30,433 bases of DNA from positions 1 to 30,433 of the forward strand of contig JAVJWO010000200.1 in NCBI GenBank assembly GCA_040222015.1, read 5' to 3'. The stretch is from Coleofasciculus chthonoplastes F2-STO-03 (GTDB lineage Bacteria > Cyanobacteriota > Cyanobacteriia > Cyanobacteriales > Coleofasciculaceae). How positions within the stretch are numbered: the first letter of the stretch is position 1; every line of letters starts with the position of its first letter. The position numbers were made by a program, and so were the translations under genes. Positions 8,830-25,026 of the stretch are shown in pieces. Under the pieces are notes generated by a model that did no database searches, was not told where the DNA came from, and saw nothing but the letters and a program-made list of their open reading frames with translations.

Positions 8830-11800
8830 TCATATTTCTTCCTCGTCGTGTTCGAGTGCTGTCTCGTCTAACTCTTTACCCACCCAACTGACTGTTTCAA
8901 TGTAGTCAGCAATGTGGCTAACGGTTGGCTCCTCAAAGAATTGACGGAGAGGGAGTTCAATTTCAAAGTCTTTCCGAATTCTGGAGATGAGGCGAGTGGC
9001 GAGAAGGGAATCCCCCCCGATTTCAAAGAAATTGTCGTCAATGCCTACCCCATTTAACCCGAGAATAGTTTCTACCATCTCAACTAACTGTTTTTCAACC
9101 GGAGTACGGGGTGGCGTCACGGCTTTTTCCAGGGGAAGATTCACCTGATCCGGCTGAGGTAGGGCTTTGTAGTTAACTTTACCATTGGGAGTCAGTGGCA
9201 ATGTGTCTAACGCCATGAACAGTTTGGGAACCATGTAGTCAGGTAACTTCTGCTGTAAATACTCTCGCAATTCGTCAGCATTAAAGGTTGATCGTTGTCC
9301 CGAATCAGACGAGAACCAGCGTTGAGTTTGAGCCGCCTCAATTTCCCCCCCCACAAAACTATATAGAAGACGCTGAGTTGATTCGAGTTTGAATACCTCT
9401 TGTAATTGGCTAAACTCGAGATAACCAATGGGACACAAACCCAGGGAGTAGGTGGGCGCGTTACTCATCAAAAGTTGACCGATATGACCCGCTTCCAAGA
9501 GGCAGAAATTCAGGGCAAGATCGCCATACATGGGCGAAATTGCACTTAACTGCCCAATTAAAAAGATGGCAAAAGTTGACTGTTCAAAAATTGACTGATT
9601 TCCCCCATAAATACTCCCATCAACTTCAGCCGCGTCTGAAATTAAGACTAAGCGATGGTCAGGGGGAGAGTAGTAGTAAACTCCGGCGTCTAGCCCGTTC
9701 ACGGCATTCGGTTTGATCAATAAATAGGTCTGTACTGGATAAAGACTTCCTGCGGAAGGATAGCGATATTTGGGCAGCGGATAACTCTCCAGTTGCATGG
9801 GGAACAGGCAACTTAAAAATTGGCTAAAGTCGTCTAACGAAATCGAACGGCGCTGAAATTGCCGATAACTTTGACGAGCAAGATAGGCTTGAGTTAGGGT
9901 TTCATCGAACTCCGGTTTCGGTAGCTCGATAGTTGTTGGCTCGGCTTGTTTGGGTCGTAGTCCGGGTTGTCTGAGCTTAAATTCAATCCGCTCTAGGGGA
10001 TCGACAATGACGCCGTCTAATTGATGGGGATCGTAGGCTTCAGTTTGAGCTGATTGCGCTTTAATGGTTGCGTTTTGATCGGGGACAACGTAAGCCACTA
10101 AGCGTTTCTTTTCTCGCGACTCTCCGACTGTTGTAACCACAGTTTCTTTAACCGCCGGATGCTGTCTTAACACCGATTCAATTTCACCCAGTTCCACACG
10201 GTATCCATTGATTTTGACTTGAAAATCTTCTCGACCGAGAAATTCAATCGTGCCGTCGGGCAAATACCGTCCCAAGTCACCGGTTTTGTATAATCGCTCT
10301 CCCGTTAACGGATGAGTAATAAAGCTGGCTTCGGTCTTCTGTTGATTTTTCCAGTATCCTTGAGCGAGTCCGATGCCACCAATATAAAGGTACCCCGGTA
10401 TCCACAGTGGACAAGGCTGCATCAACTCATTGAATACATAAAACTGTTGGTTTTGCAAGGGTTTCCCATAGGGAATACTCCGTTGTGTGGGTTGAACCTC
10501 TTCAATGGGATAATAAATTGACCAAATTGAGGCTTCTGTTGCTCCGCCCAGGCTGATCACCTGTAGGTTTGACCCAAGCGCTTGGACTTGTGGGGGTAAA
10601 CTCAGAGGAATCCAATCCCCACTTAATAGAACTAATCGTAAGGGTAAGATGCCTGGGTCGGGATGATCGGAGCGATAATCCACCAACATTTGCATTAAAG
10701 CCGGAACAGTATTCCACAACGTCACTTGGTTAGTGGTAATCAACGCTAACCAGTGCGAGGGATCGGTGCGTTTTTCCGGTGAGGGTATAACAATCGTACC
10801 TCCAGCGGCAAGCAAACCGAAAATGTCATACACCGACAGGTCAAAGTTTAATGCCGATAGCGCCAAGACGCGATCGCGGGCGGTGACGCCAAAGCGCTGG
10901 TTGATATCTAAAATCGTATTCACGGCTCCTTGATGGTCGATCATTACCCCCTTGGGTACACCGGTAGACCCCGAGGTATAAATCACATAGGCTAAATCCG
11001 TCACCGACTGTACCGATGGGAGTTCCTGAACCTCTAGTTGGGCACATTCCTCTGTGTCAACGACCAAGTATTGAACACTTTTTGGCAGGGGTAATTGTTC
11101 CTTCAACCTGGATTGAGAGACAACCAGCTTCACCTCTCCTTGCTCTAGCAAGTAGGTTTGTCGCTCTTGAGGTAAGTTGACGTCAATGGGTAAATACGGC
11201 GCACCAGACATCAAGATGCCCAAAACCGCAACAATTTGTTCCCAGCCTTTCTCCATCACCACCGCCACCAATGTATTGGGTGCAGCGCCTAATTGCCGGA
11301 GCCGATGACCGAGTTGGTTAGCTCTGAGGTAGACATCCTGATAGGTCAACCGACGCTCTGGCGTGATCATCGCGATCGCCTGGGGGTTGCGGTTCACTTG
11401 TTCCAGAAATAGACCATGTAATGTCTGTTCTGACACAGGTGCAGCCGTATCATTTACGGCTCTTCGTTGTTCCCGTTGGGCAGGGGGTAAGAGTTGAGGG
11501 TAAGGGTCATCCCACGCCTGCTCAGAGGTGGCTAAGGTTTTCAGCCATTGATAATAGGACTCAAACATATCGTCCAGAACACCAACGGGAAACAATTCTT
11601 CAATCGCATCCCAGTTGAATACTAACCCCCCATCTTGTTCATAAACTTGTTGATCAAGCCAGACTTGGGGCGTTTGAGTGATGCCATACACCAGTTCTCC
11701 CAACTGGTTGAGACTAAATTCTTCTTCAGTCAGGGAGTTGAGTCCCAAGGTACTGGTAAACACCACCCCCATCGGTTGGTAATGTCCGCGCTGACGGCGC

Positions 11801-14800
11801 AGTTCTCGTTGCACATCAACGCCACTGAAATAGTGGTGATCTAAGTCTTGCCACAATTGCTGCTGTAAGCGTTGAGCGCGGTTGGTAAAGGGAGCCGCGA
11901 CGGAGTTATTGACCTCAAGCAGGTTCAGGGAGGTGAAATCTCCAACCAAGTCATTCACTTGAGGATGTAACGGTAAGCGATTAAATAGCGTGAGATTAAT
12001 CGTGAATTTCGGACTCTTACTCCACAGGGTTAAGATATCAGCAAAGGCAGTTAACAAGACAATCGAAAGGGTTAGATTTCCCTGAACCGCTTTCTGTTTC
12101 AACTGCTGCCACTCTTCCGGTAAGAGTTGAGCGCTGCGCCGTTGGAATTGAGGCTCTGAGGTGGACGCCAGATTTCGGGTTAAGGGTAGCTCAGGGGCGG
12201 GGGGTAGGGTATGGAGACGATTTAACCAGTAATGCTTAGATCGCTGATATTCCGGTGTCTCTTTAAACGCTAATGCGGCTAACACGTAGTCTCGAAATGA
12301 CAGATCCAATTTGGGGAGTAACTGATCGGGATGGTGGTAGAGGTGTAGCCACTGTTGCCCAATCAGGATTAGGCTCCAAGCATCCGCAATAATAGCATCG
12401 ATACTCAGGTGCAAACGGATACGTTTTTCGTCTAAAACAGACGCACGGATCTCAAACAGGGGCCACTGGTTCGTGGATAAAACCTGATGGGACATCTGCT
12501 CACGAATCGTTTCTAACTGAGTGGCAATCCTTTGAGGTGATTCGTGGCGCAGATCTAAAATTTCAAACAGATAGGGAGGTACCTGTTCCAGAATTTGCTG
12601 TTGACCATTGGGTAGCACCACTGCCCGCAATAGATCATGATGGTCAACTAATTGCTGCCAAGCTCGATTCAGGCGTTCTAAGTTTAAATCAACGGTGTCT
12701 ATCTCAAAGTACGCATGACTCGATATATTGCCCAAATCAAAGCTAGCATCGCGACCGAGCCAGTAGGCTTGCTGAATATCCGTTAGGGGGAAGGGTTGAT
12801 GGCGTTGATCCGGGGCGGGGACTAGAGAGGGGAGAGAGCGAGCCGAGTCTTGCCCCAGGGGTTCAACTTGACGGAATTGACTCAAGGCTTGCTCAAGTTC
12901 AGCGACTGTGGGAGATTCAAACAGCGATCGCATGGGTAGGTCGAGTTCAAAGGCTTGCCGCAGCCGGGATATGATCTGGGTGGCAAGTAGGGAATGTCCC
13001 CCTAGCTCAAAAAAGTTGTCGTAGATGCCCACGGGGACTCCCAAGACATCGGTAAAGATGGTGGCAATTAACTCTTGAGTCAGGGTTTGGGGGGGAACCA
13101 ACGCTCCAGAGCGCCCCCCATCGGCGTCAGGTTCCGGCAGGGCGTGGCGATCTACTTTGCCATTCTGGTTCAATGGCATTGCCTCAAGCACCACGAAGGC
13201 GCTGGGTATCATATACTCAGGCAATCGCTGTTTCAGGACATTACGCAGTTCCCCGGTGGTGGGTGGCTCACCTTGAGGGACAAGATAGGCGATTAAGCGC
13301 TGATTTCCCGATGGATCGGCTTGGGCGAGTACGATGGCTTGGCGCACTTTGTGGTGTAAGGCGAGTACCGCTTCAATTTCGCCGAGTTCGATGCGGAAGC
13401 CGCGAACTTTCACTTGGTTGTCAATGCGACCCAGATATTCAATATCTCCAGAGGGGAGATAGCGAGCCAAGTCCCCTGTTTTGTATAGCCTTGCTTCTGG
13501 ATCAGTGCTGAAGGGATGGGGAATGAACCGTTGTTCCGTGAGTTCGGGACGATTGAGATAGCCTCGGGCTAACCCTGCTCCGCCCACATACATTTCCCCA
13601 GGGACGCCGATGGGTACAGGCTGTCCTTGGGGATCGAGAATATATAATTGTAGGTCAGGAATGGCACGACCAATCACACTGGCTGCCTCATCCAAATCGG
13701 CGATCTTGAGTGGGCGGTAGGTGACATGAACGGTGGTTTCGGTAATCCCATACATATTGATCAGAGTCGGAGTGCGATCGCCGTGCCGTTCCCACCAAGG
13801 TTTCAAGCTTTGGAGTTCCAGGGCTTCCCCACCAAAAATCACCCAGCGTAAGTTCAAGGGATGGGCATTACCCAATATTTCATCTGCCTGGATCAGTTGA
13901 CGAAATGCTCCTGGGGTTTGATTGAGAACTGTCACCTGTTCTTGACTGAGCAACTGATAAAACTCTTCGGGTGAGCGACTGATATCGTAGGGCACCACCA
14001 CCAGACGCCCGCCGTAGAGTAAGGCGCCCCAGAGTTCCCAAACGGAGAAGTCAAAGGCATAGGAGTGGAATAGGGTCCAGACATCCTCAGGGTTAAACTC
14101 AAACCAATCCTGTGTCGCCTGGAAAAGACGCACGACGTTACTGTGGGGGATTAAAACGCCCTTGGGTTCCCCGGTTGAGCCAGATGTATAGATGATATAC
14201 ATCAAATGATCGGGCTGGACGCCACTGACGGGATTCTCGGTACTCTGTGGGGCAATGAGTTGCCAATCGCGATCCAATGTGACGGTGACGAGGGCAGAGG
14301 TAGGCGGTGGTAGGATGGTTTTCAGCTTATCCTGAGTCACTAGCACCGAGATGTGGGCATCTGCCAGCATATAAGCCAACCGCTCAGTCGGATAAGCTGG
14401 ATCAAGTGGCACGTAAGCTCCCCCAGCTTTGAGGATTGCCAAAACTCCCACAATCATCTCCAGTGAGCGTTCGACACAAAGACCAACTAATACCTCGGGT
14501 TCTACCCCCAAGGATTGGAGATAGTGGGCTAACTGATTCGCTCGCTCATTTAATTGTTGATAGGTCAACTGTTGGTCGGCAAACACCACGGCTATGGCAT
14601 CAGGCGTCCGTTGGACCTGGGCTTCAAACCACTGATGCAGGCATTGGGATACAGGATAGGGAGTGGTTGGGTTCCACTCCACTAACAACTGGTATCGTTG
14701 TTGCTCAGTCAGTAGGGGTAACTCACCCACCGATTGGTTTGGGTTGGTGACAATGGCGTTTAATAAGGTTTGCCAATGATCGACCATCCCGGCAATGGTG

Positions 14801-16227
14801 TCTTCGTGGAAGAGATCGGTATTATATTTGAGGTCGCCCACTAAAAATGAGTCAGTTTCCGCAATCTCTAGGGTGAGATCAAACTGACCTTCCTGTTGTG
14901 GCATCTCAAAGGGTTCTAGCACCAATCCCCCCCACTCGACAGTCGTGCCCACCTGACTGGAATACAACTTCAGCACATCTGGAGTTTGTTGGAGTTTCTG
15001 CCACACAAAGCAAGCTTGGAATAGGGGTGAGCGACTCAGATCACGCTCAGGCTGGAGCCGCTCTACGATCAGGGCAAAAGGATAATCTTGATGAGCGATC
15101 GCGGCTACGACTTTCTGGCGAACGTGAGCCAGAAACGCCCTAAAGCTGGGATTTCCGGAGAGATTTGCCCGTAAGACCACTGGATTCACCAGGTAACCCA
15201 CGATTTGCGTAAATTCCGGGCGGTGGCGGCTTGCTGTTGGCGAGCCGACTAGAATATCTGCTTGCCCTGTATAGCGATGCAGTAGGACTTTCCATGCGGC
15301 TAAGAGGAGGGTGTATAATGTTGTCCCCTCAGATTGAGCCAGTTCCTTCAGTTGCTGGGTCAGGCTTTCACTCAAATGCAGGGGATAGGATGCCCCCTTG
15401 TAGGACTGTACTGATGGTCGAGGGTTATCAGTGGGCAAGTTTAACACGGGCAGTTCTCCCGCTAATTCCTGCTGCCAGTAGTTCCACAGACGCTCTCCCT
15501 CTGGACTCTCAATTAGATTCCGTTGCCAATGTACATAGTCTGGGTGGGAATGTTCGGGCGGGGGAAGATTAACCACTTGACCCGTTTTGAAGGCTGGATA
15601 AAGCACTTTCAACTCATCCAGCAACAGTCCAATTGACCATCCTTCCCCGGTAATATGATGAATGACTAACAACAGGATATGCTCCTGAGCCGAGCGGGTA
15701 AACAGTCTCACCCGCATCACGGGTCCATGTTCAAGATTGAAGGGGGTTTGATAGGCGGCAATGACCTGTTTTTTTAGGTCTTCCGGATGCCAGGTTGTCC
15801 CATCAATTTGCTGGAAATCTACTATTTGTTCTGGATGAACCTGCTGAATAGGTTCTGTGCCTAGCTTGGGAAACGTGCTACGCAAAATGGGGTGACGCTC
15901 GGTCAACGATTGAAAAACCTTTTGCAACGCGGCAACGTCTACCTCGGAACGAATACAACAGTTAAACGCGACATTGTACGCCGGACTCGCTGGTGTCAAT
16001 TGCCACAAAAACCAGAGCGCCCGCTGACCATAAGATAGGCGATAAACCTCTAATAGATGCGGCTGTTCTTGCAGCAACTTGAGAATGTCTAGTTTATCGG
16101 CTTTAAGTTGAGCCAATACTGAGGCGGTCGCTTCATTGTTCGGCGCACGATAGCGCAGCCGTCCCTGCTCACTCCATAATTTCCAGCCTTTAATAGAAAG
16201 CTCTTGTAAAAAATTCGATAAATTCAT
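8830..16227 (-). CDS. Bimodular NRPS: TubC_N-like dock-C-A(Thr)-PCP-Cy-A(Cys, embedded FMN oxidase)-PCP; thiazole-forming
   Basis: A1 code DFWNIGMVHK (Thr); PCP GGHSLL; Cy motifs PFPLTDIQQAYW, DAIIADAWS, VVFTS, TPQVWLD; A2 code DLYNLSLIWK (Cys); nitroreductase-like Ox motifs RQSYRQF and YPSAGSLYPVQTY between A8 and A9; PCP GGDSLL; acidic C-terminus LEHDEEEI. Confidence 0.96.
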   Translation of the reverse strand: MNLSNFLQELSIKGWKLWSEQGRLRYRAPNNEATASVLAQLKADKLDILKLLQEQPHLLEVYRLSYGQRALWFLWQLTPASPAYNVAFNCCIRSEVDVAALQKVFQSLTERHPILRSTFPKLGTEPIQQVHPEQIVDFQQIDGTTWHPEDLKKQVIAAYQTPFNLEHGPVMRVRLFTRSAQEHILLLVIHHITGEGWSIGLLLDELKVLYPAFKTGQVVNLPPPEHSHPDYVHWQRNLIESPEGERLWNYWQQELAGELPVLNLPTDNPRPSVQSYKGASYPLHLSESLTQQLKELAQSEGTTLYTLLLAAWKVLLHRYTGQADILVGSPTASRHRPEFTQIVGYLVNPVVLRANLSGNPSFRAFLAHVRQKVVAAIAHQDYPFALIVERLQPERDLSRSPLFQACFVWQKLQQTPDVLKLYSSQVGTTVEWGGLVLEPFEMPQQEGQFDLTLEIAETDSFLVGDLKYNTDLFHEDTIAGMVDHWQTLLNAIVTNPNQSVGELPLLTEQQRYQLLVEWNPTTPYPVSQCLHQWFEAQVQRTPDAIAVVFADQQLTYQQLNERANQLAHYLQSLGVEPEVLVGLCVERSLEMIVGVLAILKAGGAYVPLDPAYPTERLAYMLADAHISVLVTQDKLKTILPPPTSALVTVTLDRDWQLIAPQSTENPVSGVQPDHLMYIIYTSGSTGEPKGVLIPHSNVVRLFQATQDWFEFNPEDVWTLFHSYAFDFSVWELWGALLYGGRLVVVPYDISRSPEEFYQLLSQEQVTVLNQTPGAFRQLIQADEILGNAHPLNLRWVIFGGEALELQSLKPWWERHGDRTPTLINMYGITETTVHVTYRPLKIADLDEAASVIGRAIPDLQLYILDPQGQPVPIGVPGEMYVGGAGLARGYLNRPELTEQRFIPHPFSTDPEARLYKTGDLARYLPSGDIEYLGRIDNQVKVRGFRIELGEIEAVLALHHKVRQAIVLAQADPSGNQRLIAYLVPQGEPPTTGELRNVLKQRLPEYMIPSAFVVLEAMPLNQNGKVDRHALPEPDADGGRSGALVPPQTLTQELIATIFTDVLGVPVGIYDNFFELGGHSLLATQIISRLRQAFELDLPMRSLFESPTVAELEQALSQFRQVEPLGQDSARSLPSLVPAPDQRHQPFPLTDIQQAYWLGRDASFDLGNISSHAYFEIDTVDLNLERLNRAWQQLVDHHDLLRAVVLPNGQQQILEQVPPYLFEILDLRHESPQRIATQLETIREQMSHQVLSTNQWPLFEIRASVLDEKRIRLHLSIDAIIADAWSLILIGQQWLHLYHHPDQLLPKLDLSFRDYVLAALAFKETPEYQRSKHYWLNRLHTLPPAPELPLTRNLASTSEPQFQRRSAQLLPEEWQQLKQKAVQGNLTLSIVLLTAFADILTLWSKSPKFTINLTLFNRLPLHPQVNDLVGDFTSLNLLEVNNSVAAPFTNRAQRLQQQLWQDLDHHYFSGVDVQRELRRQRGHYQPMGVVFTSTLGLNSLTEEEFSLNQLGELVYGITQTPQVWLDQQVYEQDGGLVFNWDAIEELFPVGVLDDMFESYYQWLKTLATSEQAWDDPYPQLLPPAQREQRRAVNDTAAPVSEQTLHGLFLEQVNRNPQAIAMITPERRLTYQDVYLRANQLGHRLRQLGAAPNTLVAVVMEKGWEQIVAVLGILMSGAPYLPIDVNLPQERQTYLLEQGEVKLVVSQSRLKEQLPLPKSVQYLVVDTEECAQLEVQELPSVQSVTDLAYVIYTSGSTGVPKGVMIDHQGAVNTILDINQRFGVTARDRVLALSALNFDLSVYDIFGLLAAGGTIVIPSPEKRTDPSHWLALITTNQVTLWNTVPALMQMLVDYRSDHPDPGILPLRLVLLSGDWIPLSLPPQVQALGSNLQVISLGGATEASIWSIYYPIEEVQPTQRSIPYGKPLQNQQFYVFNELMQPCPLWIPGYLYIGGIGLAQGYWKNQQKTEASFITHPLTGERLYKTGDLGRYLPDGTIEFLGREDFQVKINGYRVELGEIESVLRQHPAVKETVVTTVGESREKKRLVAYVVPDQNATIKAQSAQTEAYDPHQLDGVIVDPLERIEFKLRQPGLRPKQAEPTTIELPKPEFDETLTQAYLARQSYRQFQRRSISLDDFSQFLSCLFPMQLESYPLPKYRYPSAGSLYPVQTYLLIKPNAVNGLDAGVYYYSPPDHRLVLISDAAEVDGSIYGGNQSIFEQSTFAIFLIGQLSAISPMYGDLALNFCLLEAGHIGQLLMSNAPTYSLGLCPIGYLEFSQLQEVFKLESTQRLLYSFVGGEIEAAQTQRWFSSDSGQRSTFNADELREYLQQKLPDYMVPKLFMALDTLPLTPNGKVNYKALPQPDQVNLPLEKAVTPPRTPVEKQLVEMVETILGLNGVGIDDNFFEIGGDSLLATRLISRIRKDFEIELPLRQFFEEPTVSHIADYIETVSWVGKELDETALEHDEEEI

Positions 16228-19200
16228 AGTTCCCCCTCAATCCAATCACTCTTTTGTTCACGGGTTTGGTTGACTTGGTTGTCTTGGCGAATCTCAATTT
16301 TTTCCTCTTTTTCTACCCAAATTAACTGCTTGTTGATCTCAGCAGCTAAAGCGGCAATCGTTGTTCCCCCAATAAATTGCACGATAGGAATGTCTATGCC
16401 TAATTCCTGGTGAATGGAATTTTTGAATTCCATTGCTGTCAGCGAATCCATCCCTATCTCAGTTAAGTTTTGTTCAGGACTGGGGAGTTGAGACTGTTTA
16501 ATTTTCAACACGAGAGCTACATTTTTCTGTAGGTAGGTGATCAAAAACTCGTCGCGATCGCTGGGCGAAGTTTCCTTTAACTGCTGTAACACCTGCCCCA
16601 GTTTGCCCAAGGGTTGTGCTAGGGGCTGGGGCGATTGCACCTCAATTTCTTTGAGCAGGGTTCGCCGCTCCCGTGCTTCATAAAGTTGTTTAAAAATAGC
16701 CCAATCAATATCGACAATGATTGGTTGAGCCACGCCTCGAACCAGGGAAGACTCTAGGGTTTTTAGGAATAGCTGAGGCTCGTAGTATTTCAAGCCAATT
16801 TGAGTCACGATCTCCCGCAGGGCTGTAACTCCCTGATGGCGATAATGCATCCCGCCACCGGCTAAGGCTCCTACATTAACGGTCAAAGCAGGTAAGTGCA
16901 GATGATGACGATAATGGGCAATGAGATCAAGAAACTGGTTAGCGGCTGCATAATACGCCAATCCTTCAGCCCCCCACAGTGATGTAATCGAGGAAATACA
17001 AACAAAACAGTCTAACTTGAGTCCTAAAGTCATTTGATGTAACGTCCAGGTTCCGATGACTTTGGCAGCCAGGATGGACTGGATCAAGTCAGGTGTCATA
17101 TCGGAAAAGCGGTGAAATCCCGCTACCCCGGCTGCATGAAAAATGCCCCGCAGTGGTGGAGAATAGGCATTAATTTTCTCCAGCACTTGGACAACATCGG
17201 CTCGATTACAGACATCAGCCTTGACAACTAAGACGTCAACCCCCAACGCTTCGAGTTGACGGATCGCTTGTTGAGCCGTACTGGAAGCCTCACTGCGTCC
17301 CATAAGCACGATATGTCGCGCTCCGTTTTCAACTAGCCAACGGGCGGTGTTTAACCCCAGATGACCTAACCCCCCCGTAATCAGATAGGTACCATCGGAC
17401 TGTAAACGTAGCGGTTGTTTAGGGATTGGCTGTTTGGGACTAGGGACAAGGCGAGGCACATACCGTTGTTCACACCGGAGGGCAATTTGGCTTTCTTGAT
17501 CCGGATACCAAAGTTGCTCGAACAATGCATTTGCTGCATTGGCTGGGGAAATGTCGTGATCGAGATCGATCAATCCTCCCCACATCTGGGGGATTTCCAT
17601 TGCCAGGGAACGTCCCACACCCCACAGGGGTGCTTGAGCGATGGCGGGCGGAACGGTTTCTGAACCGATTCGTTGCGCTCCCTGGGTGACTAACCAAATT
17701 TGAGGCAATTGAGGGGAGTTTGTCCGCTGTAACGCTTGAACTAAGTGTAGGGTACTGGTTAATGACCGGGTTCCATCCTTGTCTAAGGATGAGAGGGTTG
17801 TGGCTTCTGGGGGTGTTGTCTCTACACTCCAAAGATGCACGACACCTCGACAGGGGGGGAGCGTTTCCATTTGTTCGATGAGTGCTTGCATCGCTTCTGG
17901 TTCGGTGGGATTGAGGAGAATTTGACCCTCTTGAGCCACGGCACTTTCTTCAGCCGCATAAACCAGCCGACAGGTGTCTCCCTGCGCCTCTAACCGTTGG
18001 GCTAGAGCTTGACCGATGCCTGTGCGATCGGCAAAAATGAGCCAGATCCCTGGTTCTCGTATCGGTGACGATGATGATTTGAGCAGGGGTTGGGGTTGCC
18101 ATTGCAATTCATAAAACCAGTCGGCAGACTGATCTTGATCCTGGGTTTGATAATTCTGGTGTTCAACAGGCTGGAGTTGTAAACCCGAAATGTTGACTAA
18201 TAGTTTTCCGGTTTGATCGAATAGGCGAACATCCCCTTCAATAAGGGTGTCGGTAACAGTTGACAAACAGGCATAACTCCACACCTCATGGCTAATTGTC
18301 TCGTAAACTTGAACAGTCTTGAGTCCCATGGGTAAATAAAGGACAGAATGATTACTTAAAAGCCCTTCTTGGAGTAACGTTGCCAAGAGAACGTGATGAC
18401 AGGTTTCCCAGAGAGCGACATTCATTTGGATCGAATCCTGGGCGTTAATTTCTGTCCCATCCAGCTTTACTTGGGCGAGTGCCTCGGCTTTGCCTAACCA
18501 CAACTGTTCTATGCCCTGAAAAGCTTTGCCTAACTGCAGTCCATGCTGATGCAAGCGTTGATAGTAGTCTTGGACATTTTGGCGATCGCTACATCGCATC
18601 CGTATATCTGACAAGGTGTCGTGATTAGGCGATCGCGGTTGATTCTGTCGGGCAGATGTTACGGAGTTGGATTGTAGACTCTGAACAGGATGGGTTGGGA
18701 CAAAGGAGCGTTTTGGTGCAGATATCTCAGCGCTATAGCGTTCTCGAAGCTGATTGAGACTGGGTAGATGGTTTAAGATGAGAGTTTTACTCGGACCAAA
18801 GTCGAGTAGACAGGCGACTTCATCGACTCCGATATTGTCCAGCTTCTCAAGTAACTCGATACAGGTGTTGGGGGTTCCGATTAACCCTCTAGAGGTGGCA
18901 TATTTTTCAAACAAAAAGTTGACAAATGCATCTAAGTCTGATTCAGATAACGTCGATGGATCGATCGTAGATCCCCGACTTTGGGCTAACCCTTTGAGTA
19001 GACTAAAATTAGATTTGAGATAGTGGCAGTAAGGGACACGAACTTGATCTCGAACCGCCTCAAAGTCCTGCCCCACAAAAGTATGTAACATAATTGACAC
19101 GACCCCCGTTTCAGGATTGTGTCCATGTTGAGCTCTTGCCTGACGATAAAGAGTAATTTTTTCAGCTAAGGTTTCTATATCTTGATCAAGTAGATGAGTT

Positions 19201-19772
19201 AAAAGATTCGCCCCAATTTCTCCAGCTTTGATAAAGGTTTGAGGATTACTCGCCGCCGTAATCCAAATTGGCAAGTCGGATTGAATGGGTGTGGGATAAA
19301 TCCTAATCTCGACCTGACTCCCTTTGCCATTGGTGACTTGAATCGATTCACTCCGCCATAGCTTTCGGATCATCTCAATACCGCTAAACATTTCCTGATG
19401 ACGGTTTTGATACTTTTCCGGAAAAAAGGCAAAGTCATTGGGATTCCAACCCGACGCGAACGATAGTCCAACTCGACCCGCCGATAAATTATCTACAACT
19501 GCCCATTCTTCGGCAATCCGAATCGGATTATGAATCGGTAAAACAACACTTCCGGCTTGTAATCGGATCTGCCGGGTTTCTCTGGCGAGGGCGGCATTTA
19601 AAACAGCCGGATTGGGATAAAGACTGCCAAACTGGGTAAAGTGTCGTTCGGGTGTCCAAATACTCGAAAAGGAATGACTATCGGCAAATTTGGCACTTTC
19701 AAGTAGCAGACTATATTTGTCCCCAACGAGAGCCTCTTCACTACTGGCAAAAAACATTAAACCAAATTTCAT
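16224..19772 (-). CDS. PKS-associated fusion: MupA/Atu3671-type luciferase-like monooxygenase-DH(C-terminal half)-KR-ACP
   Basis: LLM motifs MKFGLMFF, WTPERHF, GSLYPNP, RIAEEWAVVDNLSAGRVG, DEVACLLDFG; DH C-lobe YYQRLHQHGLQLGKAFQGI...LYLPMGL...GDVRLFD; KR GTYLITGGLGHLG and SSITSLWG...YAAAN; ACP GMDSL; ATGA overlap with the next gene. Confidence 0.92.
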   Translation of the reverse strand: MKFGLMFFASSEEALVGDKYSLLLESAKFADSHSFSSIWTPERHFTQFGSLYPNPAVLNAALARETRQIRLQAGSVVLPIHNPIRIAEEWAVVDNLSAGRVGLSFASGWNPNDFAFFPEKYQNRHQEMFSGIEMIRKLWRSESIQVTNGKGSQVEIRIYPTPIQSDLPIWITAASNPQTFIKAGEIGANLLTHLLDQDIETLAEKITLYRQARAQHGHNPETGVVSIMLHTFVGQDFEAVRDQVRVPYCHYLKSNFSLLKGLAQSRGSTIDPSTLSESDLDAFVNFLFEKYATSRGLIGTPNTCIELLEKLDNIGVDEVACLLDFGPSKTLILNHLPSLNQLRERYSAEISAPKRSFVPTHPVQSLQSNSVTSARQNQPRSPNHDTLSDIRMRCSDRQNVQDYYQRLHQHGLQLGKAFQGIEQLWLGKAEALAQVKLDGTEINAQDSIQMNVALWETCHHVLLATLLQEGLLSNHSVLYLPMGLKTVQVYETISHEVWSYACLSTVTDTLIEGDVRLFDQTGKLLVNISGLQLQPVEHQNYQTQDQDQSADWFYELQWQPQPLLKSSSSPIREPGIWLIFADRTGIGQALAQRLEAQGDTCRLVYAAEESAVAQEGQILLNPTEPEAMQALIEQMETLPPCRGVVHLWSVETTPPEATTLSSLDKDGTRSLTSTLHLVQALQRTNSPQLPQIWLVTQGAQRIGSETVPPAIAQAPLWGVGRSLAMEIPQMWGGLIDLDHDISPANAANALFEQLWYPDQESQIALRCEQRYVPRLVPSPKQPIPKQPLRLQSDGTYLITGGLGHLGLNTARWLVENGARHIVLMGRSEASSTAQQAIRQLEALGVDVLVVKADVCNRADVVQVLEKINAYSPPLRGIFHAAGVAGFHRFSDMTPDLIQSILAAKVIGTWTLHQMTLGLKLDCFVCISSITSLWGAEGLAYYAAANQFLDLIAHYRHHLHLPALTVNVGALAGGGMHYRHQGVTALREIVTQIGLKYYEPQLFLKTLESSLVRGVAQPIIVDIDWAIFKQLYEARERRTLLKEIEVQSPQPLAQPLGKLGQVLQQLKETSPSDRDEFLITYLQKNVALVLKIKQSQLPSPEQNLTEIGMDSLTAMEFKNSIHQELGIDIPIVQFIGGTTIAALAAEINKQLIWVEKEEKIEIRQDNQVNQTREQKSDWIEGEL

Positions 19773-19809
19773 CTCTTAACTCGCATAAACGTTTAATGAA
19801 TCCGGGAGT

Positions 19810-22800
19810 TTAAAGGGTAATCTGTGCCGTGGCATATAACCTCCACTCTTGAGGTAAGGCGGGTTGGTTTAGCTGATAGCTATATAAATAAAACGATAAC
19901 GACGCATCAGATTCAGAGGTTAAAACCACTTGAATTTTCTGAGCATCTTGTTCCGATAAAAATAGGGGGGTATGGAGTTTTAAATCAGTTAACTGTTTGG
20001 GTTTACTCTTAAAGGCTTCCTCTGTCGCCGCCAACGCTATTTCGATATAAGCGCTGTGAGGCATGACGATGCTATCCCACACTCGATGATCTTTGAGGTA
20101 CGAAAGATACAGTGCATCAATCTCTGTTTCCCAGATATAAAGATTTGGCGGTGCCAGATGGTTTAATCGATTCCCTAAAAGCGGATGTTTCTGCCGCTCC
20201 GGTTGGGGTTGAGCCGCCATCCCATCAGGCTGATTAGGATCAGGGCTTTCCATGAGTCCTGTTTGGCGCTCAATTCCTGTTGTTTTGATCCAATAACGCG
20301 ATCGCTGCCAGGGATAGGTTGGTAAAATGACCTGATGACGGGGATAGTCCCGATCAAAGCCTGACCAGTCTACCGGAACACCCTGTACATATAACTCTGC
20401 CAAACTCTGTAACAGTTGCTGCCAGTCTGAGCATCCCAAACCTAGACTCGGTAACCACACGCCCACGTCTTGGGGCAGCGATTGGCGTGCCATACCCAAC
20501 ACGGTTTGTTTAGGTCCAATTTCGACAAATATCTGATAGTCACAGGCGTGAAGTGTTTTGATACTGTCGGCTAATCGTACCCCTTGACGTACATGACGAC
20601 ACCAATAGTCTGGCGTAATCTCAGCGCCAGTGAGTCGCTCTCCGGTGACGTTAGAGATCAGGTCAATTTGAGGCGTTTGGTAGGTTATTGTTGCCGCCAC
20701 CTGATTGAATTCAGCCAGCATCGGCTCCATTAAAGGAGAATGGAAAGCATGAGAAACCTGTAACGGTTTGGCTTTAATTCCCCTCGCTTCTAGGGCGGCG
20801 CAGATGTCTCGGACAGGCTGAGATGCTCCAGAAATCACCGTATTTTGGGGACTATTGTAGGCAGCAATCCCGACGTTTTGTGCATCCAAGTCAATCACAT
20901 CACGAATCGATGCCTCATCCGCCAACACCGCCACCATTTCACCGCCCCCATCCAGGCGTTGCATCAGCCGACTTCGACTGGCAATCAGCTTTAGCCCATC
21001 CTCTAAACTGAAGACTCCCGCCACACAAGCGGCAACATATTCCCCCACACTATGACCCATCACCGCATCAGGGTGAACTCCCCAGGATTGCCAAAGCTGC
21101 ACTAAAGCATATTCGATCGCAAATAAGGCAGGTTGGGTATAAGCGGTTTCATGCAGAGGAGAACTCATTCCCGGTTCGGGATAGAGGACTGATAGCAGGG
21201 AGGTTTCTAAGTAAGGACGCAGAATTTCGTCGCAGCGATCAAGGGTTTGACGGAAGGTGGGCTGCGTCTGATAGAGTTCCTGTCCCATGTTCAGGTACTG
21301 AGACCCCTGACCCGTAAACAGAAAGGCGAGTTTGGGGCGTTGGCGATTCGTTACCTGACCCGTCACCCGTCCCAGGGTTTCTTTGCCCGTCAGCCCAGCC
21401 GCTAACTGTTCACGCAATGACGCAGTTGATTCAGCCACAACCGCGAGGCGATGGTTAAAATGCGATCGCCCCGTATTGGCACTGAAGCAGATATCGGCAA
21501 GTGAGGCGGTTGGGTGGGTGGCGAAGAATGCCCCATAGCGTTTCACCAATTCCCCAAGGGCGTTCTCGGTTTTGGCTGAGAGGGTTAAAAGATGCAGACT
21601 TCGTTCGAGTTCTGGCACTTGGACAGGCGTTTCGGGTTGCGTCTCTAGCTGAGGCGCTTCTGCCAGGACAACATGAGCGTTGGTACCACCGAAGCCAAAG
21701 GAACTCACCCCAGCCACACGAGCTTTCCCACCCCTGAGCCAAGACTGTGGTGCTTGGGGAATCACAACTAAGCGCTCATCCCAAGAAATATGGGGATTCA
21801 ACTGGTTGAGGTGCAACTGGCGGGGAATTTCTTCCTGTTGTAGGCAGAGTACTACTTTAATTAAGCCAGCGATACCCGCAGCGGCTTCCAAATGACCAAT
21901 ATTCGCTTTCACGGAACCCAGAATACAGGGCGATGGTTCCGATTGCTCCGATAGCCGCACCGCTTTCAGGGATTCTACCTCAATCGGATCACCTAATGCC
22001 GTACCCGTACCATGAGTTTCTACATAACTGATTTCTGATGCCTTGACACCCGCGTTGGCAAGTGCTTGTCGGATCACCGCCTGTTGAGCCAGTCCATTGG
22101 GCGCGGTTAACCCATTACTGCGACCATCTTGATTCATTGCTGAACCTTTGATGATGGCGAGAATATTGTCTCCATCCCGTTGAGCATCACTGAGACGCTT
22201 GAGCAACACTAAGCCGCAGCCCTCAGCCCGAACATACCCATCCGCCTCCGCATCGAAGGTCTTACAACGACCATCGGCTGCCATCATTTGGGCTTGGGAA
22301 AAGGTAATGGTTAACTCTGGGGATAGGATTAAATTCACCCCACCCGCTAGGGCTTGCTGGCACTCTCCATTTTGCAAACTTTGACAGGCTAAGTGTACGG
22401 AAACGAGGGAGGAGGAGCAAGCGGTATCCACGGCTAAGGAGGGTCCTTGCCAATCAAACACATAGGAGAGGCGGTTGGCGGCAATACTCAAGGCATTACC
22501 GGTACCGGTGTACCCATCAATATCTGCATAGTTCTCACATTGAAACCGGGAGTAGTCCTGGCTACTGATTCCAATAAATACACCCGTTTGGCTACCCGCT
22601 AACTGGCTCGAAGTCAGACCCGCATATTCCAGTGTTTCCCAGGCGACTTCTAACAACAGCCGTTGTTGAGGGTCGATCCGTTCTGCCTCGCGGGGAGAAA
22701 TCCCAAAAAAATCGGCGTCGAAACCGTCTACTTGCTCCAGAAATCCGCCCCAACGGGTACTCATTTTACCGGGTGTGGCGGGCTGTTGATCATACAAGGT

Positions 22801-25026
22801 GTTGACTGACCAACGGAAATTAGGTATCTCAGTAATGGCATCCACACCGTTGTGCAGCAACGTCCAGAATGCGTCTGGGTCATTGACACCAGGGAAACGA
22901 CAACCCAGACCAATGATCGCGATCGCGTCTCGTTGGACAATCGGGGTGTAGGGAGTCGGGGCGAGAGTTGCCGTTTCCTGGACTAACTGTTGGGCGAGAC
23001 GTTCGATCGTTGGGTAATCGTACAGTAAGGTTGGAGACACCTTATATCCCAGCCATTCTTGAGCCTCCCCCGCCAGACGGATGGCGACCATTGAACTGAG
23101 ACCATATTCGGCTAAGGGGTGTTGAATGTCTATCGCCTCGGGCAACACTTGCAGGGACTGGGACACCTTGGCAATTAACCACCGTTGGATTTCCTCTTGG
23201 CGGTCAGGGGACAGGGATTGAGGGGGCGTTTTCACCTCGGCGTCTTCCGACTGTAATCGGGTTGAGGGTTGAGATGTCGCACACCAGGACGTTACCCCAT
23301 CCAGAGTGCCAGCCAGAAAACCATCCCGACAGGCACCCCGTTGCACTTTGCCACTGGATGTTTTCGGAATACTGGCGGTTCGCAGCAGGACGATCCCATA
23401 AACGTCTATATCATGTTCCTGAGCGACGGCTCGACGAATTGCCCCAATCACCTCATCAGCGTTGAGTGTCCGCCGCGAACTGCGTTTCACCTCCTGAGCA
23501 ATCACCAGTTTTTCTTGACCGTTCACGGGAACCGAAAACGCCGCGCCACAGTGGGGGCGTAGGGCTGAATGACAGGTTTCGACCGTGAGTTCAATATCTT
23601 GAGGATAATGGTTGCGACCTCGGATGATAATTAAATCCTTGAGCCGTCCGGTGATGAACAACTCACCCTCCCGTAAAAATCCCAAATCCCCTGTCCGGAG
23701 AAACGGACCAGCGCCTGTATCAGCGATGTACCCTTGGAAGGTTTCTTGAGTCTGCTGCGATCGCTGCCAATACCCCCCCGCTATACTTGATCCAGAAACC
23801 CAAATCTCTCCCACTTGCTTTTCTGGACATTGGGTTAAGGAGTCCGGATCAACGATCGCAAGGGTTTCGTCTAACCAGGCTTGTCCACAACCAACTATCT
23901 TTCGAATTCCTGGTTCATCACTTGGGGCTTCCACGACCTGGTTTTTCGCCAGTTCTGCCTCTTTGACTGAACAGACAACGGGCAGTTGAGTGTTTAATCC
24001 CCCCGAAACAAATAGCGTTGTCTCAGCCATACCGTAGCAGGGGTAAAATGCCCTAGGCGAGAAGCCACAATCAGCGAAGGTGCGAGCAAACTGCTCTAGG
24101 GTTGACCAACGCACTGGCTCGGCACCATTAAACGCGACGTTCCAGCGACTCAAATCTAAACTGGCTCGTTGTTCGGGCTTAATCGTTTGTACACATAAAT
24201 CATAGGCAAAATTCGGTCCACCACTGGTTGTGGCTTGATAGCGGGAAATCGCCTGTAACCAACAATAAGGCTTGAGCAGGAACGCCTCTGGGGGCATAAG
24301 AATGCTTTGTACACCCAAGTATACGGGTTGCAAGACATTGCCAATCAGTCCCATGTCATGGAATAACGGCAACCAACCAACAACCACCGTTTGTGAAGAA
24401 TGACCGAATGCCTGCTGAATCATTTGCTCATTGTGCAGCAGGTTTCCATGACTTACCATCACCCCTTTGGGCGTCCCCGTTGACCCCGAGGTGTACTGTA
24501 GAAATGCCAGTGTGTCCTGGTTTATCGTCGGGACGTACCAATCCTCGGCTAGGTCACTGGCAATCCTGTCAGTTGTCAACCAATGCATCGCCGCCAGTTC
24601 GGGTGCTTCAGTTAAACGAGAACCCATCTGGGTTAACACTGATGTGGTGGTGAGGGCAAACGCGGCTTGAGCATCAGCCACAATCGCTTGTAACCGTTTC
24701 CGATGCTGATTGCGCCGAGGGGGATAAGCCGGAACTGCCACAACTCCAGCATACAAACACCCAAAAAAGGCACAAATAAATTCCCAACCTGATGGGTAAA
24801 GGAGTAGGGCTCGCTCACCCCTGGCTCCCTGACGTTGAAGTTGAGCGGCGATGCTTCGCGCACGAGTGTCTAACTCGTGATAAGTGAGGCGGATTTCTTC
24901 TGTTTCTCCGTCTGGTAAGAATAAGTAAGCGATGGAATTTGGCTGATTGTTGGCTCGCCGCCTCAAGATATCGACAAAGGTTAGCGCCTCATCTGGAGAG
25001 GACAGGAGACGATTTAAAGCGTTCAT
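19810..25026 (-). CDS. Loading/PKS protein: fatty acyl-AMP ligase-ACP-KS-AT(malonyl)-DH(N-terminal half)
   Basis: FAAL AFLQYTSGSTGTPKG, WLPLFHDMGLIG, PCYGMAETTL, RGRNHYPQDIE, PKTSSGK; ACP YGLSSM; KS DTACSSS, ETHGTGT, NIGHLE; AT GHSVG and HAFHS; DH N-lobe HPLLG...DHRVWDSIVMP. Confidence 0.95.
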   Translation of the reverse strand: MNALNRLLSSPDEALTFVDILRRRANNQPNSIAYLFLPDGETEEIRLTYHELDTRARSIAAQLQRQGARGERALLLYPSGWEFICAFFGCLYAGVVAVPAYPPRRNQHRKRLQAIVADAQAAFALTTTSVLTQMGSRLTEAPELAAMHWLTTDRIASDLAEDWYVPTINQDTLAFLQYTSGSTGTPKGVMVSHGNLLHNEQMIQQAFGHSSQTVVVGWLPLFHDMGLIGNVLQPVYLGVQSILMPPEAFLLKPYCWLQAISRYQATTSGGPNFAYDLCVQTIKPEQRASLDLSRWNVAFNGAEPVRWSTLEQFARTFADCGFSPRAFYPCYGMAETTLFVSGGLNTQLPVVCSVKEAELAKNQVVEAPSDEPGIRKIVGCGQAWLDETLAIVDPDSLTQCPEKQVGEIWVSGSSIAGGYWQRSQQTQETFQGYIADTGAGPFLRTGDLGFLREGELFITGRLKDLIIIRGRNHYPQDIELTVETCHSALRPHCGAAFSVPVNGQEKLVIAQEVKRSSRRTLNADEVIGAIRRAVAQEHDIDVYGIVLLRTASIPKTSSGKVQRGACRDGFLAGTLDGVTSWCATSQPSTRLQSEDAEVKTPPQSLSPDRQEEIQRWLIAKVSQSLQVLPEAIDIQHPLAEYGLSSMVAIRLAGEAQEWLGYKVSPTLLYDYPTIERLAQQLVQETATLAPTPYTPIVQRDAIAIIGLGCRFPGVNDPDAFWTLLHNGVDAITEIPNFRWSVNTLYDQQPATPGKMSTRWGGFLEQVDGFDADFFGISPREAERIDPQQRLLLEVAWETLEYAGLTSSQLAGSQTGVFIGISSQDYSRFQCENYADIDGYTGTGNALSIAANRLSYVFDWQGPSLAVDTACSSSLVSVHLACQSLQNGECQQALAGGVNLILSPELTITFSQAQMMAADGRCKTFDAEADGYVRAEGCGLVLLKRLSDAQRDGDNILAIIKGSAMNQDGRSNGLTAPNGLAQQAVIRQALANAGVKASEISYVETHGTGTALGDPIEVESLKAVRLSEQSEPSPCILGSVKANIGHLEAAAGIAGLIKVVLCLQQEEIPRQLHLNQLNPHISWDERLVVIPQAPQSWLRGGKARVAGVSSFGFGGTNAHVVLAEAPQLETQPETPVQVPELERSLHLLTLSAKTENALGELVKRYGAFFATHPTASLADICFSANTGRSHFNHRLAVVAESTASLREQLAAGLTGKETLGRVTGQVTNRQRPKLAFLFTGQGSQYLNMGQELYQTQPTFRQTLDRCDEILRPYLETSLLSVLYPEPGMSSPLHETAYTQPALFAIEYALVQLWQSWGVHPDAVMGHSVGEYVAACVAGVFSLEDGLKLIASRSRLMQRLDGGGEMVAVLADEASIRDVIDLDAQNVGIAAYNSPQNTVISGASQPVRDICAALEARGIKAKPLQVSHAFHSPLMEPMLAEFNQVAATITYQTPQIDLISNVTGERLTGAEITPDYWCRHVRQGVRLADSIKTLHACDYQIFVEIGPKQTVLGMARQSLPQDVGVWLPSLGLGCSDWQQLLQSLAELYVQGVPVDWSGFDRDYPRHQVILPTYPWQRSRYWIKTTGIERQTGLMESPDPNQPDGMAAQPQPERQKHPLLGNRLNHLAPPNLYIWETEIDALYLSYLKDHRVWDSIVMPHSAYIEIALAATEEAFKSKPKQLTDLKLHTPLFLSEQDAQKIQVVLTSESDASLSFYLYSYQLNQPALPQEWRLYATAQITL

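Follow-up and report, generated by a model that had tools for sequence, protein, structure and literature searches.

A polyketide synthase dehydratase divided between two proteins around a luciferase-like monooxygenase: a candidate docking pair in a predicted 2,3-diol-forming module of Coleofasciculus chthonoplastes

Introduction

At the junctions known so far, subunits of polyketide synthases (PKSs) meet between domains and rely on docking peptides that have been added there. In cis-acyltransferase (cis-AT) systems such junctions have been described as predominantly intermodular (PMC9113145). Hydroxylation at C2 of a beta-keto thioester bound to an acyl carrier protein (ACP) by a luciferase-like flavin monooxygenase (LLM) has been shown for MupA (PMC10952193) and proposed for PuwE (PMC4219810); MupA acts ahead of the ketoreductase (KR), accepting for hydroxylation only the beta-keto substrate on the ACP and rejecting the beta-hydroxy one (PMC10952193). 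Cyanochelin B carries hydroxyl groups at C2 and C3 of its extended chain, the carbons that match the module described here (PMC12628792). The legend of that paper lists Ox, cMT and KR domains and no dehydratase (DH), and the string 'dehydrat' is absent from one text supplement (PMC12628792). The occidiofungin (burkholdine) cluster belongs to the Burkholderia cepacia complex (PMC9494966, PMC9792986, PMC13684122), and its product carries 3-amino-5,6,7-trihydroxystearate (PMC9792986). Reviews describe OcfI as a flavin monooxygenase and OcfJ as an NRPS or an inactive PKS, and a 2026 review calls the PKS domains of OcfJ 'thought to be inactive' (PMC13684122).

Here we analyse a window of 30,433 nucleotides (contig JAVJWO010000200.1) from C. 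chthonoplastes F2-STO-03, in which a DH is divided between two genes and the second gene begins with an LLM.

Results

Domain organization of the split module

The features of the locus are collected in Table 1. The upstream protein, P0002, has an intact KS triad and intact malonyl-type AT motifs (GHSVG and HAFH). It closes with the N-terminal DH hot-dog (DHn) alone, as a first-pass annotation of this DNA had claimed: PF21089 (PKS_DH_N) matches residues 1614-1716 over model positions 1-102 of 103 (Pfam, E 1.1e-22), and the lobe aligns with residues 3-127 of the CurF DH as well as with the CurK N-lobe. The codon of the DH histidine, given there as about 20086-20088, lies at exactly 20088-20086. 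The order proposed for the next gene, LLM followed by the C-terminal hot-dog (DHc), KR and ACP, was likewise recovered in P0001. Residues 3-343 match TIGR04020 over model positions 1-341 of 341 (E 6e-150, 499 bits vs a cut-off of 244.45); among solved structures the oxidation domain of PuwE (PDB 6KET, E 1.5e-126) is the closest, and it is also the best Foldseek match to the fold. PF14765 (PS-DH) matches residues 386-540 over model positions 5-163 of 166 (Pfam, E 1.1e-25), and DHc aligns with residues 151-296 of the CurJ DH. The DH and luciferase/MupA profiles suggested for scanning both proteins therefore found all three domains at near full length. Both hot-dog lobes of a catalytically active PKS DH are present, but they are spread over two proteins and are not contiguous.

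Table 1. Positions of the split module and its acceptor in the window
Feature	Position	Strand	Remarks
FAAL-ACP-KS-AT-DHn gene	19810..25026	-	P0002, 1738 aa
DH N-terminal hot-dog (DHn)	19813..20205	-	terminates exactly at the C-terminus of P0002
His1647, DH catalytic His position, kept	20086..20088	-	P0002
Intergenic spacer, 37 bp, with TAA (19778-19776) in the downstream gene's frame	19773..19809	-	
LLM-DHc-KR-ACP gene	16224..19772	-	P0001, 1182 aa
MupA/PuwE-type luciferase-like flavin monooxygenase (LLM) domain	18741..19772	-	TIGR04020, 6KET
Flexible LLM-DHc linker, ~36 aa	18633..18740	-	pLDDT<50 at P0001 residues 352-382
DH C-terminal hot-dog (DHc)	18150..18632	-	PF14765; CurJ alignment
Glu456 at catalytic Asp position	18405..18407	-	NVALWE vs HPTLVD in CurJ
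Ketoreductase (KR)	16848..18122	-	catalytic Tyr present; no LDD Asp; Trp present
ACP of split module, Ser1110	16335..16544	-	P0001
Acceptor NRPS C-A-T-Cy-A-Ox-T	8830..16227	-	its start overlaps the P0001 stop

The junction between the two genes

P0002 stops at a TAA (19812-19810), P0001 starts at the ATG at 19772, and the two reading frames differ; the gap, the frame change and the in-frame TAA two codons ahead of the LLM start codon can all be read in the DNA, as annotated earlier. The relative G002, a 95%-identical genome, shares the stop, the length of the spacer and the in-frame TAA, with 195/200 junction positions identical and no gaps. Assembled contigs from four of four sequencing runs (four studies) span the junction with no indel, and the sole indel in these contigs, seen in one run, inserts 3 bases in frame at 20269. 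Run X16 is recorded as RNA but may contain DNA, and its contigs say nothing about transcription. The earlier claim that a single-base sequencing error does not explain the break is upheld by both comparisons. Naturally fused forms exist among homologues (see below) and would fit a single protein in reality, produced by assembly error or by stop read-through with a frameshift. Such a protein is nevertheless very improbable here: it would have to get past two stops and a change of frame, the same junction recurs in G002 and in all four runs, and the gaps of relatives range from a 4-base overlap (17/34) up to 314 bp and occupy all three frames. We therefore rejected assembly error and read-through.

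Distribution of the divided dehydratase

A genome search for KS-AT-DHn // LLM-DHc-KR-ACP, proposed in the first-pass annotation, recovered the DHn // LLM-DHc layout with an upstream reading frame ending in DHn at 32 of 34 genome loci; of the two exceptions, one has no upstream DNA and the other no DH match. The layout occurs in cyanobacteria, Burkholderia, Fibrella, Acidobacteria-type MAGs and others, and we rejected a unique or recent break on the basis of this spread. The rarity that had been implied is not borne out, since the layout is widespread, also occurs fused and is present in published clusters. Among the best 120 near-length homologues all have the LLM first (from residue 1-27) and then DHc. 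The best 120 long homologues include 48 single chains of DHn-LLM-DHc, in which the flanking linkers shrink to 5 and 8 aa and covary in length (Spearman 0.75, overstated because the rows are related), and 21 LLM-KR proteins with neither lobe, all single chains, so that this module type can exist without a DH. Both complete lobes occur together at 32/34 genome loci and 15/80 metagenome loci. No full-length locus listed has one lobe without the other; in L065 and L066, which are incomplete, just DHn // LLM is seen. In 10 of the 34 loci the upstream protein ends no more than 2 residues past the lobe, which leaves no room for an additional docking element.

On the LLM tree there are at least four changes between split and fused states; with both states interspersed close to the root and an outgroup of only 6 rows, the tree favours neither fusion nor fission as the direction of change. 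The same tree gives about 4-5 origins of DH-less modules. On the DH tree, where supports are low, the interrupted DHs do not form one resolved clade that would indicate a single origin of the LLM insertion.

Predicted pairing of the two lobes

Modelling of the two halves together, as had been suggested, gave an interface between the lobes with a score of 0.80 for the pair of this locus vs 0.00 for the best of three controls. At least 59% of contacts recur between runs, and the partner pLDDT is at least 75. The mark for this score was reached by 116/157 solved and 2/215 mismatched pairs, counts that are rough with the alignments used. All confident contacts lie between DHc (residues 411-542) and DHn (residues 9-82), and His42 of the N-lobe falls within the predicted interface. 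The predicted complex resembles many solved DHs, a likeness that may account for the score. For the natural fusion L055, modelled by template-free AlphaFold2, a single superposition (Z 33.1, rmsd 2.4 Å, 274 of 281 residues) places both lobes on the CurK DH, giving an intact double hot-dog. Interface residues exceed the others in conservation only marginally (p 0.06 and 0.11), which provides no support for binding from conservation. The annotated idea that the halves re-associate thus stands as a prediction, carried by the score, the purely DHn-DHc interface and the intact fold of L055; its companion, that pairing places the LLM beside the acyl chain, finds no support in the models, in which the LLM makes no confident contact and is attached through the low-confidence linker. 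The lobes probably clasp P0002 and P0001 together.

State of the dehydratase and type of ketoreductase

The active site of the divided DH has degenerated. In the HxxxGxxxxP motif of DHn, His1647 and the proline are kept and the glycine is Asp; the residue at His+10, small in intact DHs, is His. In DHc the catalytic Asp of the HPALLD motif, present in 26/26 intact controls, is Glu456. This substitution was overlooked in the first-pass annotation. At the nine closest loci the acid is Glu in 9/9 and the His is replaced by Tyr or Asn in 6/9. Across the family, His is kept in 28/34 split N-lobes and an acid (Asp or Glu) in 32/34 split C-lobes; His and Asp are both present in 26/26 intact DHs, 25/48 fused chains and 22/34 split pairs, the latter including the cyanochelin B pair and 12/12 Burkholderia pairs. 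Since so many split pairs keep both residues, dyad loss cannot generally account for the absence of dehydration, and we rejected it as a family-wide cause of inactivity. A small residue at His+10 is found in 25/26 intact DHs, 1/34 split and 10/48 fused forms, the residue being bulky in 33/34 split pairs. The KR has no LDD Asp and has the Trp, a combination that we take to be an A-type fingerprint; the B-type Asp is likewise missing from 59/111 split-type KRs, vs 1/10 KRs of intact-DH modules. The products of relatives, cyanochelin B and occidiofungin, retain the beta-hydroxyl group. Judged from the Asp-to-Glu change, the bulky His+10 and the A-type KR, the DH of the split module appears non-dehydrating and is probably non-catalytic.

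Cluster context

The A-domain codes of the acceptor NRPS, read on the G002 orthologue, are presumably Thr-type and Cys-type. An Asp/Asn beta-hydroxylase, largely deleted in G002, is also encoded in the window, together with one Asp/Asn-like module. A search with BAU16017 found no TonB-dependent receptor in 80 kb surrounding the G002 counterpart of the cluster, a search that divergent receptors could escape, and gave one short match on another contig of the window's own genome. A siderophore label for the cluster is unsupported by this search.

Discussion

We consider the locus to encode, with a probability of roughly 0.65, one cis-AT PKS module, KS-AT-DHn // LLM-DHc-KR-ACP, that combines C2 hydroxylation and C3 reduction with docking of its subunits through a pseudo-DH. 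The FAAL would load a fatty acid, and extension by a single malonyl unit through the KS and AT would leave a 3-ketoacyl chain attached to the ACP of P0001. C2 would then be hydroxylated by the LLM with O2 and reduced FMN supplied by an outside reductase, after which the KR would reduce C3 and the 2,3-dihydroxyacyl chain would pass to the Thr/Cys-thiazole NRPS, with no dehydration by the DH. The two hot-dogs would re-pair across the polypeptides into a normal double hot-dog, tying KS-AT to KR-ACP, while the LLM would protrude as a loop from the linker between the lobes. We infer this chemistry and its order from the products of relatives and from the biochemistry of MupA. The C2 oxidation by the LLM that was proposed in the first-pass annotation is supported by the match to PuwE and by the two clusters with a C2/C3 diol.

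The same chemistry could operate with the lobes reduced to vestiges or spacers of little or no affinity for each other, contact between the subunits being made through a transient KS-ACP encounter or through another surface, for example that of the LLM dimer. The DH lobes are indeed far more variable (mean column entropy 1.7) than the LLM (0.85), their interface is only marginally conserved, the window and G002 differ by 11 non-synonymous and 15 synonymous codon changes in the N-lobe vs 12 and 34 in the LLM, and lobes have been lost repeatedly on the LLM tree. That the lobes are idle is nonetheless unlikely, as both are retained complete together at nearly all genome loci and at 15 of the metagenome loci, are lost as a pair in the DH-less chains and never occur singly at a listed full-length locus; upstream proteins that end at the lobe have no space for another docking element, and the complex prediction separates the pair from its controls. 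Less likely still is a re-formed DH that is catalytically useful, either by supplying an enoyl-ACP that the LLM would epoxidize and water would open to the diol, or by acting as an epimerase at C2 or as a base that promotes enolisation for the oxygenase. The retained His and acid, here and in most split lobes, and the position of His42 in the predicted interface would suit such a role, but the nine closest loci have mostly lost the His and all carry Glu, His+10 is bulky in all but one split pair, the KR type differs from that of most intact-DH modules, MupA needs a beta-keto substrate and refuses the beta-hydroxy one, and LLM-KR modules exist with no DH at all.

Beyond the pseudo-DH docking proposed for this module, a DH cut between its hot-dogs might represent a general, self-complementing and selective cis-AT docking pair, born when a monooxygenase gene with its own start codon entered the linker, a proposal to which we give slightly less than even odds. 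The locus L056 contains two successive split modules whose C-lobes are only 34% identical, and cognate lobes may therefore pair orthogonally. If true, the pair would be an unlisted docking class and the module a portable 2,3-diol cassette. A junction in mid-domain whose halves are the docking elements would constitute a new mode of megasynthase assembly and a tool for splitting modules, and DHn // LLM-DHc-KR would serve in genome mining as a rule that predicts a 2,3-diol and not an alkene.

What is new here is the architecture; the genes in published clusters and the alpha-hydroxylation chemistry of the LLM are already known. The first-pass annotation had noted that finding the layout in a characterised cluster would remove its novelty: two published clusters, those of cyanochelin B and occidiofungin, do have it, but the split itself is undescribed in the texts examined. 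Our literature search, whose coverage excludes the cyanochelin A paper (Galica 2021) and the original ocf papers, found no title or listing that mentions an intra-DH split with an LLM.

Comparison with known systems

The split module fits the type of cyanochelin B and OcfJ-OcfI, in which a protein ending in DHn is followed by LLM-DHc and KR-ACP. In the cyanochelin B cluster of Leptolyngbya sp. NIES-3755 (plasmid 2, AP017310.1; PMC12628792), BAU16016 ends in DHn and BAU16015 (CcsC) starts with LLM-DHc, giving FAAL-ACP-KS-AT-DHn // LLM-DHc...KR-ACP cut at the same place, with a 12-bp gap there and 51.6% identity over LLM-DHc. CcsC differs in having a C-methyltransferase, in keeping His and Asp and in handing off to a Cys cyclisation module, and its locus adjoins a TonB-dependent receptor. 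In 12 Burkholderia loci the corresponding pair is FAAL-ACP-KS-DHn // LLM-DHc-KR-ACP. Its identification as OcfJ // OcfI rests on gene size (3324 bp for the LLM gene, as for ocfI, in 6/6 checked), layout and genus and not on the MS14 record. In these loci the two genes share 4 bases, both His and Asp are retained, two further PKS modules follow, and the OcfJ-like proteins have no AT (246-254 aa from KS to DHn), with the KS triad intact in 12/12. By carbon count, the 6,7-diol of occidiofungin would be the diol expected from the OcfJ//OcfI module, which conflicts with the description of the OcfJ PKS domains as inactive (PMC13684122). If true, the 'inactive' OcfJ KS would carry out the first elongation step of occidiofungin, a testable correction of the published scheme.

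The LLM belongs to the same subfamily, TIGR04020, as PuwE (PDB 6KET; PMC4219810) and MupA/OocM (PMC10952193). None of these is nested in a DH: the PuwE domain shares its place between PKS and NRPS modules with an aminotransferase, and MupA and OocM occur as stand-alone enzymes of trans-AT systems. A monooxygenase inserted within another catalytic domain is also known from the A domains of MtaG and MelG, as described in PMC11411415, where the host is an adenylation domain, the chain is one polypeptide and the outcome is terminal amide formation. Trans-AT split modules and their DHD docking domains (PMC9113145) share with our locus a subunit junction within a module and the involvement of a DH in docking. 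The trans-AT cuts, however, fall between domains (KS/KR, KS/DH and DH/KR) and carry added docking peptides (PMC9113145), whereas in the module described here the AT is intact, no DHD tail of ~70 aa follows DHn, and the cut lies inside the DH of a cis-AT module with no docking peptide.

The split dehydratase and its junction

The window, which is the entire contig C200 of the source genome, encodes a dehydratase (DH) that is divided over two genes. The N-terminal hot-dog lobe (DHn) closes protein P0002 (1738 residues), and the C-terminal lobe (DHc) follows a MupA/PuwE-type luciferase-like flavin monooxygenase (LLM) in protein P0001 (1182 residues). The stops, the 37-bp gap and the His codon described in the first-pass annotation agree with the window sequence, and DH profiles match both proteins, as that annotation expected, with PF14765 lying after TIGR04020 in P0001. 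The LLM scores 499 bits with TIGR04020 (cut-off 244), and residues 1–560 of P0001 are 97% identical to the closest named protein, which has the source label Coleofasciculus chthonoplastes. The N-lobe aligns with residues 3–127 of CurF and the C-lobe with residues 151–296 of CurJ, both solved structures, which places the cut at the lobe boundary.

Genes carrying the split dehydratase in the window
Feature	Coordinates	Strand	Domain evidence
FAAL-ACP-KS-AT with terminal, complete DH N-lobe (P0002)	19810..25026	-	PF21089, residues 1614-1716
Full MupA-type LLM, then DH C-lobe, KR and ACP (P0001)	16224..19772	-	TIGR04020; PF14765, residues 386-540

The region is present at 95% identity in one of eight same-genus genomes (G002), where the stop, the spacer length and the in-frame TAA are all as in the window. 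Contigs from four of the 20 listed sequencing runs, belonging to four studies, were compared and all span the junction with zero indels. The split junction is thus genuine and an artefact is ruled out.

Distribution of the layout

A genome search for DHn on one protein and LLM-DHc on the next, proposed in the first-pass annotation, found this split layout in 32 of 34 genome loci, the upstream ORF terminating in DHn in each; the remaining two loci comprise L009, without upstream DNA, and L033, without a DH match. In 17 of 34 pairs (the window and L035 included) the two genes overlap by 4 bases, the lower end of a spacing range that reaches 314 bp. All of the best 120 homologues of 650–2069 aa start with the LLM followed by DHc, and 107 have the exact LLM-DHc-KR-ACP order. 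Because LLM-DHc proteins without a KR occur (P0136, P0137 and P0150), non-reducing modules use the split layout as well. The order LLM-DHc-ACP is seen in five of the best 120 near-length homologues, and three long ones run on into NRPS-type domains.

Among 80 metagenome loci, in which L048 duplicates L005, 15 are split, four are fused (DHn-LLM-DHc in one chain), 58 have no DH match, two show DHn followed by an LLM gene but are truncated, and one has an intact DH ahead of the LLM. The best 30 C-lobe loci of a 401-genome phylum sample, a count that includes the source genome, comprise four split cases and 26 ordinary DHs. The best 120 longer homologues include 48 fused proteins and 21 with KS/AT-LLM-KR and both lobes absent; the AT-to-LLM gap is 72–107 aa in the 19 AT-bearing DH-less proteins compared with 179–291 aa in the fused ones. 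In a tree built from 61 chosen LLM rows, the split and fused states require at least four changes, with no direction given between them, and DH-less forms originate four to five times. Wherever a split was seen, the cut precedes the LLM, as would fit a monooxygenase gene that was inserted with, and kept, its own start codon.

Several loci carry more elaborate arrangements. At L002:2515-9894 the upstream protein has an intact DH and a second, terminal DHn, the partner of the LLM-DHc encoded by the next gene. L056:2-9621 holds tandem split modules (LLM-DHc-KR-ACP // KS-AT-DHn // LLM-DHc-KR-ACP), whose two C-lobes share 34% identity and which offer a natural test case for orthogonality of pairing. 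In L011, L012 and L014 (downstream of 13600) and at L022:3536-6769, the same cluster also holds a second LLM, from a different clade (KS-AT...LLM-KR or FAAL-LLM-ACP).

Predicted re-pairing of the lobes and the DH active site

The proposal that the two DH halves re-associate is supported at the level of predicted lobe-lobe contacts. For LLM-DHc together with DHn, the complex prediction gave 0.80 against 0.00 for the best of three controls, with at least 59% contact agreement between runs and a partner pLDDT of at least 75; 116 of 157 solved pairs attain the mark, as do 2 of 215 mismatched ones, counts that are approximate for the alignments used here. Every confident contact joins DHn to DHc, with the His loop and Glu456 taking part, and the LLM has none. 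Since solved DHs resemble the predicted complex, the passing score shows likeness to them and not binding. The same caveat applies to the model of the natural fusion L055 (pLDDT 85), in which both lobes fit the CurK DH (Z 33.1, rmsd 2.4 Å, 274 of 281 residues) and the LLM separately matches PuwE (Z 41.8). The shortest fused linkers are 5 and 8 residues, indicating that the lobe junction can accommodate the ends of the barrel. Conservation of the interface residues exceeds that of the rest only marginally.

The window DH retains His1647, has Glu456 at the Asp position and carries His at His+10. Intact DHs of the same phylum have both His and Asp in 26/26 and Gly, Ala or Ser at His+10 in 25/26; the split pairs, 12 of which are closely related Burkholderia loci, have the dyad in 22/34 and a small His+10 residue in 1/34, and the fused proteins in 25/48 and 10/48, respectively. 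All nine of the closest loci have the Glu, and six have additionally lost the His. A simple account of DH inactivity is complicated by the cyanochelin B and Burkholderia pairs, which retain both His and Asp and have products with a β-hydroxyl. By the usual KR motif rules, the window KR has the Trp of the A type but not the Asp of the B type; the B-type Asp is present in 52 of 111 split-type KRs versus 9 of 10 KRs of intact-DH modules.

Surrounding cluster and likely product

The orthologous G002 cluster encodes a type II thioesterase, two PLP-type enzymes (one recognised by eye only), an ornithine-cyclodeaminase-like protein, a PhyH dioxygenase, an ABC exporter, four NRPS genes, a racemase and an MFS transporter; a search for a TonB-dependent receptor in 80 kb was negative. 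From the sequence, the product is likely a 2,3-dihydroxyacyl-Thr-thiazole lipopeptide, with A-domain codes of the Thr and Cys types. Two NRPS genes terminate in epimerase-type domains, with only one downstream gene having a matching start (window 1-7883 and 25727-30433; G002:C35 17330-56848), and the last NRPS did not show a terminal integrated thioesterase that would explain release. The NRPS genes are not arranged collinearly. Between NRPS and FAAL-PKS, a 221-aa protein (window 25058-25723) resembles a 2-oxoglutarate/Fe(II) oxygenase by eye, with zero matches in Pfam and NCBIfam scans.

The A-domain core in the final module of the upstream NRPS diverges sharply between window ~27600-28800 and G002:C35 ~47800-49000 (9–38 of 50 residues identical, versus 46–49 in the flanks). 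This looks like a natural A-subdomain swap, the pocket being presumably Asn-like in the window and Gly-like in G002. An Asp/Asn β-hydroxylase gene (window 7949-8800) is intact in the window, but G002 lacks ~600 bp of the gene (window 7990-8586); this loss may be linked to the G002 A domain no longer looking Asn-specific.

Comparison with known systems

The closest solved relative of the window LLM is the PuwE oxidation domain, which has a proposed part in making a 3-amino-2-hydroxy acyl unit (PMC4219810). MupA hydroxylates the α-carbon of an ACP-bound β-keto thioester but not of the β-hydroxy one, and requires an outside flavin reductase (PMC10952193). The window module would work as MupA/PuwE-type α-hydroxylation modules do, by a chemistry that is probably known already.

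The split genes sit in published clusters. The cyanochelin B starter genes show the layout, and the chain bears OH on both carbons matching the split module (PMC12628792). The available text of the cyanochelin C preprint (10.64898/2026.07.24.740629) mentions neither dehydratase nor monooxygenase. Occidiofungin, handled as a MIBiG entry (PMC11411415), contains 3-amino-5,6,7-trihydroxystearate (PMC9792986); with a C12 starter extended by the split module and then by two more PKS modules, one would expect the LLM hydroxyl at C6 and the KR hydroxyl at C7. A review names OcfI a flavin monooxygenase (PMC9494966), and the OcfJ PKS domains are described as "thought to be inactive", with the DH abbreviation in a figure legend (PMC13684122). 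Insertion mutants in ocfI and ocfJ homologues abolished haemolytic activity, with polar effects possible (PMC3442841). OcfJ-like proteins (L018, L023-L032 and L034) lack an AT and have an intact KS triad in 12/12 loci. In L024 the next gene likewise lacks AT motifs in its first module but encodes a full AT in its second, which suggests one AT for three modules.

The architecture is real, conserved and widespread. No description of an intra-DH split was found in the literature searched, a scope that excludes Galica 2021, which may bear on the point; the mid-domain split as a docking interface appears undescribed so far, and this role is easy to test. An oxygenase nested within another domain is already known from MtaG/MelG (PMC11411415). 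The window module is not of the trans-AT split class with a DHD domain, since a docking review gives KS/KR, KS/DH and DH/KR as the trans-AT junctions and describes cis-AT junctions as predominantly intermodular (PMC9113145). Its layout belongs instead with those of CcsAB-CcsC and OcfJ-OcfI.
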